A stretch of DNA of 63,920 bases, counting the filler, from Acidimicrobiia bacterium (lineage in GTDB: Bacteria; Actinomycetota; Acidimicrobiia; Spongiisociales; CAZKJJ01): NCBI GenBank assembly GCA_046759765.1. It is 6 parts of 6 records of this genome, joined end to end, with 100 filler letters (N's around TTAATTAATTAA, not from the genome) between each part and the next. Parts side by side here need not be neighbours in the genome. Positions count along the whole stretch, not along the records: positions 11,166 to 22,194 come from JBHICV010000077.1; 5 more parts are not named here. One strand, written 5' to 3'. Shown one piece after another: positions 16,748 to 21,024 of this stretch. The notes under the pieces are model-generated. The model saw only the letters and a program-made list of their open reading frames with translations. It was not told where the DNA came from and searched no databases. Position 1 is the stretch's first letter; every line of letters begins with the position of its first letter. A program made the translations under genes and the position numbers.

Positions 16748-19030
16748 ATGGATCTCATTCCCAAGTTCATCGGCGCGCCCGTTCAGAGGAGGGAAGACCC
16801 TTCTCTCGTCACCGGAGAAGCCGACTACGTGGGAGACATAAATCTGCCGGGAACCCTCCATATGGCTGTCGCGCGAGTGCCGGCCGCCCATGCTCAGCTC
16901 ACCGACCTGGAGGTGGAGGAGGCTCGTGGTGCTCCCGGAGTTCGGCTGGTCGTGACCCCCGAGGACGTCTCCGAGGTGGCGATGCCGCCTCGGCCCAACC
17001 CTGAGCGCGGCATCCCTCGCCGCTACCCACTCGTTCAGGGCAGGATCCTGATGCCCGGCGATCCCGTGGCGGCAGTCATCGCGGAGACGCCGGATCAGGC
17101 CAAGGATGCGGCGGATCTCGTCCTCTTCGACTACGAGCTCCTCGAAGTGGTTGTCGATCCGGAGCAGGCACTCGACGCCCCGGTATTACATGAAGAGCTG
17201 ACCAGCAACGTGGCAGTCGACTGGCCCGGAGGCGACCGGCAAGCCTTTGACGACCTAGAGGCACCAGTCGTCCTTCAAGGCACCGTCGAGCACCCACGGG
17301 TCATTCCCAACCCGATGGAAACCAGGGCAGTGCTAGCCGACTGGCGCGGAGATCGACTCGATGTGCATCTCAGCTCCCAAGCCCCGCATCTCCTGGCTGA
17401 CGAGATCGCACGCAGCTTTGGCCTTCCTATTGCGCAGGTCCGTGTCAATACCCCATACGTCGGGGGCGGGTTCGGGTGCAAGTACGAGATCGCGGAGGAG
17501 GAGTACCTCGCCATCGTCGCGTCCCGAAAGCTGGGCGCTCCGGTGCGGTGGATCGAGTCCCGTCGCGAGCACATGCTGGCAATCGGCCACGGAAGGGCCC
17601 AGATACACACCTGGGAGCTCAAGGCGGACCACGACGGCCGAATACTCGGCTTCTGGGTCGACTCCCTTCTCGACCTGGGTTGCCGAGCTCGGTACCTCCT
17701 GCCCGGCGCCGTCACTCCCAGGATGGGGACCGGTAACTACGACATCTCCGTCTACGGATGGCGCCAGCGAGGCGTATACACCAACCGCTCACCTCGGGGC
17801 ATCTATCGCGGCGCGGGTCGGCCGGAGGCGATCCTTACCTTGGAGCGGGCCGTCGACCGTCTGGCGACCGAGCTCGGCGCCGACCCCGCCGACATCCGCC
17901 GTCTCAACTTCGTAGCCAAAGATGCCTTTCCGTACCGCAACCCGGCCGGCTATGTCTACGACACCGGCGACTACGACGCCCTGCTGGACACCCTCTTGGA
18001 CCGGGCCGACTATGCGGGACTTCGAGCAACTCAGGAGGAGCGGCGGGCGGCGGGGCGCCTGATGGGAATCGGCCTGGCCGCCTACGTCGAGGTGTGCGCT
18101 TTCGAGGATTGGGAGGCCGGCTCAGTTAGGACCCACCGCGACGGCTCGGTCACCGTATCCGCAGGTACGTCCGACCAGGGACAAGGACATCGCACGGCGT
18201 ACGCGCAGGTAGCGGGAGACGCCCTTGGCGTCCCACTGGAGATCGTCACGGTCTCCCAGGGGGACACGGCCACTGCGCCTTGGGGCTACGGGACCGCCGG
18301 CTCGAGGTCCGTCTCGCTGGGCGGGAGCGCCATCTACCAAGCCGCTCAGGAAGTAGCCGACAAAGCCCGGCAGATCGCGGCTCATCTGCTCGAGGCCGCA
18401 CCAGGAGACATCGTGCTCGCCGACGGCCAGGCGACAGTATCCGGCACTGATGTCTCCGTGACCTGGCGGGACATTGCTCGCACGGCCCACGCACCCCGGC
18501 GATTGCCGGACGGCATGTCACCCGGGCTCGAGGCGGAGACGGGCTACCGATCGGGAGGAAGGAACTTTCCCTCCGGTGTTGCTCTGGCGGTAGTCGAGGT
18601 GGATGCCGACAGCGGCTCGGTGCAGTTGCTCAGCTACTGGGCAGTCGACGATGTCGGCCGCGTCGTCAACCCGATGCTCGCTGATGGACAGCGGCACGGA
18701 GGCATCGCCCAGGGTCTCGGCCAGGCACTGTGGGAGGAGGCCCGCTACGACTCGGACGGCAACCTGCGGACGGCTTCCCTGATGGATTACCTGCTGCCGA
18801 GTGCCGCGCAGATGCCGTCCTTCGACTTGGACACCATCGAGACTCTCTCTCCGACCAATCCGCTGGGGGTGAAGGGCGTAGGCGAGCTGGGAACGATCGG
18901 CTCTACCGCCGCGGTCCTCAATGCAGTGATTGATGCGCTCGCCCCGGTGGGAGTCACCGACCTCCAGGTGCCTCTCAGCCCAGAGAAGGTCTGGAGGGCC
19001 ATTCAGGCGTCAGGACTCGAAGGCGGCTAG
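16748..19030 (+). CDS. Xanthine oxidase-family molybdopterin-binding large subunit (form II CoxL-like / aldehyde oxidoreductase)
   Basis: RREDP, VGGGFGCK, IYRGAGRPEA, QGQGH, GGIAQG and KGVGE. Confidence 0.9.
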   Translation: MDLIPKFIGAPVQRREDPSLVTGEADYVGDINLPGTLHMAVARVPAAHAQLTDLEVEEARGAPGVRLVVTPEDVSEVAMPPRPNPERGIPRRYPLVQGRILMPGDPVAAVIAETPDQAKDAADLVLFDYELLEVVVDPEQALDAPVLHEELTSNVAVDWPGGDRQAFDDLEAPVVLQGTVEHPRVIPNPMETRAVLADWRGDRLDVHLSSQAPHLLADEIARSFGLPIAQVRVNTPYVGGGFGCKYEIAEEEYLAIVASRKLGAPVRWIESRREHMLAIGHGRAQIHTWELKADHDGRILGFWVDSLLDLGCRARYLLPGAVTPRMGTGNYDISVYGWRQRGVYTNRSPRGIYRGAGRPEAILTLERAVDRLATELGADPADIRRLNFVAKDAFPYRNPAGYVYDTGDYDALLDTLLDRADYAGLRATQEERRAAGRLMGIGLAAYVEVCAFEDWEAGSVRTHRDGSVTVSAGTSDQGQGHRTAYAQVAGDALGVPLEIVTVSQGDTATAPWGYGTAGSRSVSLGGSAIYQAAQEVADKARQIAAHLLEAAPGDIVLADGQATVSGTDVSVTWRDIARTAHAPRRLPDGMSPGLEAETGYRSGGRNFPSGVALAVVEVDADSGSVQLLSYWAVDDVGRVVNPMLADGQRHGGIAQGLGQALWEEARYDSDGNLRTASLMDYLLPSAAQMPSFDLDTIETLSPTNPLGVKGVGELGTIGSTAAVLNAVIDALAPVGVTDLQVPLSPEKVWRAIQASGLEGG

Positions 19031-20020
19031 CCGCTCGATCAGGTCGACGACCCGGTTGGAGTAGCCCCACTCGTTGTCGTACCACGCGACGACCCTGGCC
19101 ACGTCCCCGTGTACCTGGGTCGAAGGCGCGTCGAAGACGCACGAATGGGGATTGCCGATCACGTCTGAAGAAACAAGCAGGTCCTCGGAATAGAGAACCA
19201 CTCCGGCCATGGGTCCGTCGGCGGCGCTTCTGACTGCCTGGTTGATGTCTTCTACCGAGACCTCTTGGTCGAGCTGAACCACCAAGTCGACGATCGAGCC
19301 GTCCGGCACCGGGACCCGCATTGCCACGCCGTCCAGCCGGCCCTCGAGCCGCGGCAGGACGACCCCAACCGCCTTGGCCGCCCCGGTGGTGGTCGGAATG
19401 ATGTTCTCGGTAGCGGCCCGACTCCTGCGGGGATCCTTGTGCGGGACGTCGGCAAGGCGCTGGTCGTTGGTGTAGGCGTGAACGGTGGTCATCAGACCGC
19501 GCTGGATTCCGAACGAGTCGTCGAGGATCTTGGCCAAGGGTGCCAGGCAGTTGGTGGTGCAAGAGGCGTTTGACACGATCACGTCGGTCTCGTCCAGCTC
19601 CTCGTCGTTGACCCCCAGCACGACCATCTCGTCTACGTGGTCCTTGGGCGGGACTGTGAGGATCACCCTGTCGGCCCCTGCTTCTAGGTGTTTCTGAAGC
19701 GCCTCGTGCGTACGGAACACCCCGGTGGCCTCGACGACCACCTCGACGCCCAGCTCTTCCCAGGGCAGCAGGACGGGATCGGGCTCCGCCAGCATTCGGG
19801 GCCGCTGCCCATCTGCGCTCATGAACCCGTCGGCGACGCTCACCTCTCCTGGGAAGGGCCCCATAACGGTGTCGAAGCGCAGCAGGTAGGCGAGCTCGTC
19901 GTCGTTCGAGAGGTCGTTGATGGCCACCACCTCGATTCCTGTCTCGGGCCGCTGGGTGATGATCCGAAAGACCGACCGGCCGATGCGACCGAAGCCGTTG
20001 ATCGCCACCTTGACTGTCAT
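19010..20020 (-). CDS. gap: Type I glyceraldehyde-3-phosphate dehydrogenase (catalytically intact)
   Basis: INGFGRIGR, SNASCTTNC, TTVHAYT, TTGAAK, RVP and WYDNEWGY. Confidence 0.96.
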   Translation of the reverse strand: MTVKVAINGFGRIGRSVFRIITQRPETGIEVVAINDLSNDDELAYLLRFDTVMGPFPGEVSVADGFMSADGQRPRMLAEPDPVLLPWEELGVEVVVEATGVFRTHEALQKHLEAGADRVILTVPPKDHVDEMVVLGVNDEELDETDVIVSNASCTTNCLAPLAKILDDSFGIQRGLMTTVHAYTNDQRLADVPHKDPRRSRAATENIIPTTTGAAKAVGVVLPRLEGRLDGVAMRVPVPDGSIVDLVVQLDQEVSVEDINQAVRSAADGPMAGVVLYSEDLLVSSDVIGNPHSCVFDAPSTQVHGDVARVVAWYDNEWGYSNRVVDLIERLAAFES

Positions 20021-21024
20021 GAGCCGTCCTCAGACGCGTAACGGGCAGCCGTGTCAATGACCCGGGCGGCATAACCCCAGCCGTTGTCGAACCAGACCAC
20101 GCACTTGAGCATCGTCCCATCGACCACCATCGTGGCGAGGCTGTCGAAGATTCCTGAGTGAGTCCCCACGACGTCACTGGACACAATCGGATCGGTCGTG
20201 TACTCGATGATCTCGGAGAACCGGGCCTCGACCTCCTTCTGGATCACCTCGTTGACTTCTTCCTTCGACGTCGGTTCCCGGGCGATCGTCACCAGATCGA
20301 CCGTCGACCCTTCCGAGACAGGAACGTTGAGGGCCATGGCTTGCATCTTCCCTGCCAAACCGGGAAGGACCTTGCCGAGGATCTCAGGCGAGTTTGTCTC
20401 GGTCGGGATGATGTTCTCCGCCGCCGATCTCGATCCGCGGAACTGTCCGCTCGGCACGTCAGCCAGCCTCTGATCGTTGGTGAAGCCGTGAATCGTCGTG
20501 AAGAAGACGCGGTCGATCCCGAAGCGGTTGTCGATGATCTGCAGGATCGGTGCGATGGCGTTGGACGTGTTCGACCCGAGGGCCACGATGGGATTGTCGG
20601 GGCCGATCAGGTCTTGGTTGATTCCCCATAGGACGATCGGTAGCTCGCCGAGGTCCTCAGGCACCGATGCCAGCACGACGTAGCGGGCCCCGGCATCGAG
20701 ATGTCTTCTGGTCCAGGAGGCCGTTCGGTGCTTTCTGGTGGCTTGGACAACGATGTCCACACCGTGCTCTTCCCAGTCGACTTGCCCTGGTTCTGCTCGG
20801 TCGAGGAAAGGGATAGCTCGATCGCCGACGATGAGATGAGAGTCCTGGAGTTCGACGGGGGCGGGGAATCTACCCAGGAAGGAGTCGTAGCGGAGCAGGT
20901 AGGTGAGGCTTTCCGGGTCGGCGATGTCGGAGATGGCTGCCACGTCCAGATCCGAGCGCCCGTAGAGAAGGCGAAACACGTTCCGCCCGATCCGCCCGAA
21001 GCCCATCAACCCGATGGTCGTCAC
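20017..21024 (-). CDS. GAPDH-like protein lacking the catalytic cysteine
   Basis: GFGRIGR and full-length GAPDH fold motifs, but LGSNTSN replaces ASCTTN. Confidence 0.9.
   Translation of the reverse strand: MTTIGLMGFGRIGRNVFRLLYGRSDLDVAAISDIADPESLTYLLRYDSFLGRFPAPVELQDSHLIVGDRAIPFLDRAEPGQVDWEEHGVDIVVQATRKHRTASWTRRHLDAGARYVVLASVPEDLGELPIVLWGINQDLIGPDNPIVALGSNTSNAIAPILQIIDNRFGIDRVFFTTIHGFTNDQRLADVPSGQFRGSRSAAENIIPTETNSPEILGKVLPGLAGKMQAMALNVPVSEGSTVDLVTIAREPTSKEEVNEVIQKEVEARFSEIIEYTTDPIVSSDVVGTHSGIFDSLATMVVDGTMLKCVVWFDNGWGYAARVIDTAARYASEDGS

Follow-up and report, generated by a model that had tools for sequence, protein, structure and literature searches.

Glyceraldehyde-3-phosphate dehydrogenase (GAPDH) counts among the best-studied enzymes; its bacterial forms are regarded as homotetramers, and we know of none described otherwise. 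In the chloroplast A2B2 enzyme, the GapA and GapB subunits are both active and GapB regulates through a C-terminal tail derived from CP12. Epd (also GapB), an erythrose-4-phosphate dehydrogenase and GAPDH paralogue, uses a catalytic Cys. Pseudoenzyme subunits of homo-oligomeric enzymes are also known (e.g. plant PDX1.2 and the trypanosome AdoMetDC prozyme), with the PRPS pseudoenzymes reportedly being another case. Here, a tandem pair of GAPDH genes was analysed in a 63,920-nucleotide stretch of DNA (the window) from an Acidimicrobiia bacterium (assembly GCA_046759765.1; order Spongiisociales). The window consists of six contigs of this assembly with N spacers between them, and the pair lies wholly within one contig (JBHICV010000077.1, positions 11166–22194). 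As the original prediction had described, the genes encode proteins of 335 and 336 amino acids and overlap by ATGA; its coordinates and every motif that it quoted were present (Table 1). The upstream protein has lost catalytic and substrate-phosphate (Ps) residues and has kept subunit-interface residues. Judged from sequence and modelling, it is probably a non-catalytic partner that joins the downstream gap product in a mixed GAPDH tetramer, likely in a 2+2 arrangement.

Both proteins were compared with curated families and with solved GAPDHs, using for Cys149, Arg231, Glu314 and other reference residues what we take to be the customary Geobacillus numbering. The downstream protein scored 431.2 bits against the type I family TIGR01534, above the cut-off of 367.2, and contains the Cys, the His, Arg231, TTGAAK and WYDNE; it is canonical, as originally proposed, and no other GAPDH in the assembly is catalytically complete. 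The upstream protein is 41% identical to it, has both Pfam domains (Gp_dh_N and Gp_dh_C) above cut-off, and scored 292.3 bits against TIGR01534 and 239 bits against the Epd family TIGR01532 (cut-off 530.55), in each case below the curated mark. Its structure model has a complete GAPDH fold (predicted local distance difference test score, pLDDT, of 92.8, low only in the S-loop, residues 181–200) with template-modelling (TM) scores of 0.91–0.95 to solved GAPDHs. In the upstream protein, Asn152 (LGSNTSN) occupies the nucleophile position, Asn233 replaces the substrate Arg231 (RVP to NVP), Gly197 stands at the Arg195 position and Gly315 replaces Glu314 (WYDNE to WFDNG), with the catalytic His176 retained as His179. 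GFGRIGR, Asp33, Thr96, Asn314, Tyr318 and the S-loop segments TNDQRLADVP and SR.A.ENIIPT are kept, and changes in the nicotinamide adenine dinucleotide (NAD) site comprise Gly97 to Arg, Asn6 to Met and Ser/Thr119 to Ala. The Asn and Cys codons and the changed and kept motifs listed in the original prediction all held. Its further claim of a changed phosphate-binding loop (TTGAAK to ETNSPE) stood for the Gly following Thr210 (now Asn) and the Thr two residues before it, but the phosphate-binding Thr210 (Thr208/212 of solved GAPDHs) is kept. Loss of the loop had therefore been overstated, as the hydroxyls of the new inorganic phosphate (new-Pi) site (i.e. Ser151, Thr153 and Thr210) are retained while the Gly209 equivalent is Asn. 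PMC5119734 gives the ligands of this site as Ser, Thr and Thr side chains and a Gly backbone.

Selection on the upstream gene was assessed using its closest homologues and the partner gene. None of the best 120 of 2073 homologues (E ≤ 1e-90), which carry Acidimicrobiia source labels among the best matches, retained the Cys; all 120 shared the Asn, which excludes chance or sequencing error for Asn152 and agrees with the argument that the AAC codon lies beyond a single base error. Ratios of nonsynonymous to synonymous substitution (dN/dS; Nei-Gojobori) were obtained for 56 non-independent pairs with unsaturated dS among 93 pairs of >72% identity. The median for the upstream gene was 0.19 (range 0.04–0.44), far below the value near 1 that had been raised as a check, and that of the partner gene was 0.12. 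The upstream gene is thus under purifying selection, whilst evolving about 2-fold faster than the partner (mean distance 0.89 versus 0.46). An intact fold, purifying selection and lost catalytic residues, i.e. the attributes of a pseudoenzyme, are all found in the upstream protein.

The linkage of the two genes was examined in both directions. Within the source's order, 24/41 genomes (own included) carry the dead copy, and in 24/24 a canonical gap on the same strand follows it directly, with contig ends cutting three of the pairs; the best GAPDH match of each of the other 17 genomes was viewed and none had the partner signature RLADVPH. The counts of 24, and of 94 and 136 below, include one unpublished genome (G015, locus L008), on which alone no claim depends. 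Species-level genomes were scanned with a motif from the C-terminus of the upstream protein, which is blind to neighbouring genes, yielding at least 120 loci. Apart from one chance match, 119 were GAPDH-like and a second gap lay directly downstream in 119/119 (118 counted by script and one frameshifted locus read by eye; 40 short loci show only the start of the partner). The Glu314 to Gly change is 100% in this set by construction, and unbiased figures come from the best 120 homologues and from the metagenome set, where 0/60 upstream copies read, in a set not selected on the WFDNG-region motif, had Glu at this position. The converse scan of metagenomes with a partner motif gave 122 loci, some redundant, with the dead copy directly upstream in 61/61 that were scorable, the other 61 lacking upstream room; a partner-type gap standing alone was found in 0/61. 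Beyond RLADVPH, the partner type is marked by Tyr42, Met50, LTVP and RRSRA. Genes in the 94 full pairs overlap by 4 nt in 53 cases and by 1 nt in 17 (70/94 together), and no conserved third gene was found beside these pairs. Across phyla, the dead and live gap genes stay together as a fixed unit of two.

Record titles with the pair name Actinomycetota (Acidimicrobiia, Actinomarina), Acidobacteriota (Thermoanaerobaculia, Multivorans), Marinimicrobia, Planctomycetota, Eisenbacteria, Krumholzibacteria, Desulfobacterales and Bdellovibrionales, with Bacteroidota labels among the proteins, and the upstream clade occurs in at least eight phyla. The pair constitutes the only GAPDH matches in 6/10 genomes from other groups, including a 1.0 Mb Actinomarina assembly. 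Among the loci viewed in a 301-genome phylum sample, the dead copy was found only in the six top-scoring genomes (E < 1e-150), all of the same order, and the 24 next-best loci viewed were ordinary GAPDHs; these negatives include unpublished genomes (G041, G086, G126 and G157), with no claim depending on them alone. A phage collection returned 22 matching records, all of <60% identity (best 39.5%).

Retention of residues was then compared between functional classes, taking as reference the positions with an invariance of ≥85% across 84 diverse GAPDHs and counting as kept those present in at least 80% of 136 upstream copies. The upstream family keeps 9/9 invariant positions at the P interface (defined by contacts in the heterodimer model described below), 4/5 at the R interface, 5/8 in the NAD site, 2/5 at catalytic or substrate positions and 19/33 elsewhere. 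Asn stands in place of Arg231 in 93% of the 136 copies, compared with Arg in 100% of partners, whereas the new-Pi hydroxyls are widely kept (Ser151 100%, Thr153 96%, Thr210 83%) and the His is present in 85%. Interface ranges and NAD contacts were taken from PMC5119734. The S-loop and R-face residues Tyr42, Ala188, Val190, Ser198 and Glu203 are common to both genes and rare in other GAPDHs. A branch of 120 proteins with Bacteroidota/Marinimicrobia labels has Arg10 changed to Glu in 98%, Asn313 kept in only 65% and no Tyr317, which suggests loss of NAD binding; the Arg10 change does not prove this, as Arg10 contacts NAD through its backbone (PMC5119734). An NAD(H)-sensor variant of the original prediction is rendered doubtful by erosion of the NAD site in this lineage.

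Other patterns were seen in the same regions. Loci L231, L192 and L224 and proteins P0271–P0390 have GFGEIG in the NAD loop and Arg188 in 118/120 proteins, as if positions 11 and 188 had exchanged charges. In Actinomarina-like pairs (L082, L089, L096 and L107), both S-loops have diverged together, unlike in all other pairs (upstream RLADVAG/RLSDVAG, partner ALAETTH/ALAEGTH), making these loci good natural material for interface tests. An apparently complementary P-face loss (upstream without Asp228, partner without Arg172/Met299) was discounted, the positions being variable in general GAPDHs too.

A heterodimer of the dead and live proteins was predicted with a score of 0.80, compared with 0.44 for the best control; the score mark is reached by 116/157 solved pairs versus 2/215 mismatched pairs. 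Model runs had ≥98% of their contacts in common, with partner pLDDT of at least 91 and contacts on P-face strands. As GAPDH tetramers have been solved many times over, this predicted pass indicates compatibility of the two proteins and not binding or a preference over homo-pairs.

Phylogenies were inferred from 333 rows (FastTree) and 75 rows (IQ-TREE quick), both trees being unrooted. The upstream copies fall on one side of a branch with support of 98 in the two trees. Pairwise distances of the two genes were correlated (Mantel r 0.81, 0/999 permutations), which is a sign of co-inheritance only. The nucleophile position in 136 upstream copies is N in 52, S in 31, C in 26, A in 17, I in 4, F in 3, V in 2 and P in 1, with at least 10 changes between Cys and non-Cys on the tree; as this position drifts, Cys loss is not universal. 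The 26 Cys-keeping copies, from other phyla, all lack Arg231, Glu314 and Asn6, and loss of these three residues is nearly universal in the family. We infer that loss of the substrate site came first and was followed by repeated drift away from Cys, an order that depends on a root. The pair would be a case of pseudoenzyme birth with surviving intermediates (Cys kept, Arg lost). Several Cys-less GAPDH-like representatives (P0182, P0187/P0203, P0178, P0212 and P0244) lie outside the upstream clade in the tree and are possibly independent dead GAPDH families. One Planctomycetota locus (L109:2593-3606) has an unusual downstream gene (AASCTANG, TTTAAPK) and an upstream copy that keeps the Cys. The most eroded upstream copies, with GFGLLG, Phe at the nucleophile position and Arg for His, belong to Multivorans-like loci (L099, L102 and L117), in which the partner S-loop is altered too.

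The two-way linkage and the selective retention of interfaces support a non-catalytic partner subunit, the structural or regulatory role first proposed for the upstream protein; that proposal is partly supported, with the correction that 26/136 copies in other phyla keep the Cys. Several observations weigh against a mixed tetramer. These 26 copies keep both Cys and His and may retain some chemistry, and the Asn residues that are invariant in the lineage could belong to a ligand site or to another reaction. Monophyly of the partner gap genes has support of 85 in the 333-row tree and is not resolved in the 75-row tree, and congruent trees are expected for any co-inherited neighbouring genes. The R-interface positions behind the 4/5 count were chosen by us, in part from published ranges, with no buried/surface control, and conservation of interfaces is just as compatible with the upstream protein forming a homo-oligomer. 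The heterodimer pass may be due to likeness to solved GAPDH tetramers. Mutual-information covariation between the genes in 136 pairs gave no interpretable contacts, its top ranks seemingly being driven by shared ancestry and so not being used. Fused genes lend no Rosetta-stone support, because the three full-length fusions among 7999 candidates are singletons with out-of-frame stretches, i.e. frameshift artefacts; three shorter joined proteins look like frameshift or assembly products and are of no use as evidence.

Three other explanations were considered. Decay after a recent duplication, or an error of assembly or sequencing, would accord with the 2-fold faster evolution of the upstream gene, but this is ruled out by its dN/dS and the Asn shared by all of the best 120 homologues, and is further contradicted by the divergence from its neighbour, the unbroken frame and the single clade spanning phyla. 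The upstream protein could instead be non-catalytic and act as a homo-oligomer or transiently, whether by chaperoning assembly, by reversible inhibition or by sensing NAD(H) or sugar phosphate. All three tetramer faces look conserved, and the NAD motif, Asp33, Asn314 and new-Pi hydroxyls are kept in its own lineage, as such a role would have it; positions 11 and 188 also shift jointly (Arg/Ala to Glu/Arg in 118/120 of one branch, partners staying Arg/Ala), which hints at like-with-like R-face contact, although this is one clade rather than independent events and the covariation is a weak hint (rank 28 of 38924). Like-with-like R contacts are, however, also compatible with a 2+2 tetramer of mixed P pairs, and a free regulator would have no need of a 1:1 coupled unit in each of the genomes seen. 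With the partner type never alone and the NAD site eroding in one branch, we regard this explanation as unlikely.

Slightly less likely still is a different NAD-dependent chemistry without a thioester, in which Asn152, Asn211, Asn233 and His179 would act on another phosphorylated substrate. The replacements are nearly invariant in the lineage (Asn152 in 120, Asn233 in 119, Asn211 in 116 and His179 in 119 of the best 120 homologues), the Ser151/Thr153/Thr210 pocket is kept family-wide and some copies elsewhere have the Cys. Set against this are the eight residues found at position 152 across the family, the variability of position 211, the replacement of His179 by Lys or Arg in about 15%, the eroding NAD site of one branch and the fact that no pathway gene travels with the pair. 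A non-catalytic subunit of a mixed tetramer is hence the explanation that we favour.

How such a mixed tetramer might work can be outlined. The ATGA overlap would couple translation of the two genes and yield about equal amounts of dead and live subunit, which would contact each other through the large P interface; the partner-type live enzyme would need the dead subunit for assembly or full activity. Most speculatively, the dead subunit would fix an asymmetry otherwise reached via cooperativity in GAPDH tetramers, the Ser/Thr/Thr phosphate pocket that it has kept may modulate the live sites, and NAD binding by it would likely be dispensable. A bolder form, put forward tentatively and with some doubt, is that the pair makes an ancient, multi-phylum obligate heterotetramer in which the live subunit is inactive alone and the dead half hard-wires half-site asymmetry and phosphate-ligand allosteric control of central carbon flux in abundant uncultured bacteria such as Actinomarina and Marinimicrobia. 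A natural dead/live GAPDH pair, if true, would provide a ready-made system for how cooperativity passes between subunits. Many of the genomes seen, those of streamlined marine bacteria among them, have no GAPDH set other than the pair, and in databases the dead copy is listed as an ordinary GAPDH or an aldehyde dehydrogenase, which misleads metabolic models.

Table 1. Features of the tandem GAPDH pair, in window positions
Feature	Position	Strand	Basis
Upstream gene: Cys-less GAPDH paralogue, candidate non-catalytic subunit	20017..21024	-	335 aa, GTG start, unbroken frame
Downstream gene: canonical type I GAPDH, distinctive partner type	19010..20020	-	336 aa
ATGA stop/start overlap of both genes	20017..20020	-	sequence
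GAGGA, Shine-Dalgarno-like, putatively for the downstream gene, within the 3' end of the upstream gene	20027..20031	-	read from sequence
GATACT, -10-like hexamer, 6 nt ahead of the upstream GTG; no Shine-Dalgarno site	21031..21036	-	sequence
Catalytic Cys codon TGC (SNASCTTNC) of downstream GAPDH	19559..19561	-	Cys in 136/136 partners
AAC codon of Asn152, in the nucleophile position held by Cys149 in solved GAPDHs (LGSNTSN)	20569..20571	-	Asn in 120/120 of best 120 homologues
Asn233 replacing substrate Arg231 (RVP to NVP)	20326..20328	-	Asn in 119/120 of best 120 homologues
Thr210-Asn211: phosphate-binding Thr kept, next Gly replaced	20392..20397	-	alignment
Gly315 replacing Glu314 (WYDNE to WFDNG)	20080..20082	-	Gly in 120/120 of best 120 homologues

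The surroundings of the pair were also inspected. A leaderless start of the upstream gene at the GATACT hexamer would be a guess; a similar hexamer occurs in 6/45 relatives, most having a purine-rich ribosome site instead, and a consensus promoter scan gave no site. The assembly, which is 92% complete, has no GAPDH homologues besides the pair (tblastn, E ≤ 1e-3) and further contains pgk, on a different contig, as well as two PFK-family genes and glpX. On the plus strand, positions 13953–19030 encode an AAA+ ATPase, a CoxE-like vWA protein, a response regulator receiver and the large subunit of a xanthine/carbon monoxide dehydrogenase-family molybdoenzyme, the 3' end of which shares 21 nt with the 3' end of gap, encoded on the opposite strand; no gene for a medium or small subunit was adjacent among the open reading frames (ORFs) listed. 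On the other side (21140–22194, plus strand) lie a divergent M23 peptidase gene and nadD (nicotinate-nucleotide adenylyltransferase), the latter placing a gene of NAD synthesis close to the pair, but across loci the flanking genes show no conservation. Elsewhere in the window, positions 22639–29117 (plus strand) presumably encode FHA proteins, a PP2C phosphatase, RodA/FtsW, a penicillin-binding protein and a PASTA kinase, as labelled from their translations, in what we take to be the usual actinobacterial order. Genes for tRNA-Glu (793–866), tRNA-Leu (22535–22622) and tRNA-Ala (31524–31598) are all on the minus strand. The N spacers are at 11066–11165, 22195–22294, 32964–33063, 43645–43744 and 54314–54413; as the ORFs at 11114–12574 and 21528–22250 extend into these joins of separate contigs, gene order across them is meaningless.

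A full-text literature search, with subscription journals mostly outside its coverage, found no paper on a Cys-less bacterial GAPDH partner; pseudoenzyme subunits and heteromeric GAPDHs are each known, and their combination was not found in the literature searched. The downstream protein is a full member of the type I GAPDHs (EC 1.2.1.12; TIGR01534; PDB 1hdg, 1gd1). The upstream protein shares with these both Pfam domains, the full fold, the NAD loop, Asp32, His176, Asn313, the new-Pi Ser/Thr/Thr and the tetramer faces, but lacks Cys149, Arg231, Arg195, Gly209, Glu314 and Asn6, falls below the family cut-off and is always tied to a live copy. It resembles Epd in being a GAPDH paralogue with an altered substrate site and differs in having no Cys and in its low score against TIGR01532. 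The chloroplast GapA/GapB enzyme (PDB 2pkq and 7q53 among the matches) offers the likeness of two paralogues in one tetramer, as proposed here, one being regulatory; the upstream protein, however, has no tail (335 amino acids), CP12 had no match in the 92% complete assembly, and one subunit here is dead. With PDX1.2, the AdoMetDC prozyme and PRPS, which have folds unrelated to GAPDH, the pair would share a proposed principle, in which a dead paralogue kept for its interfaces joins the live enzyme and modulates it.

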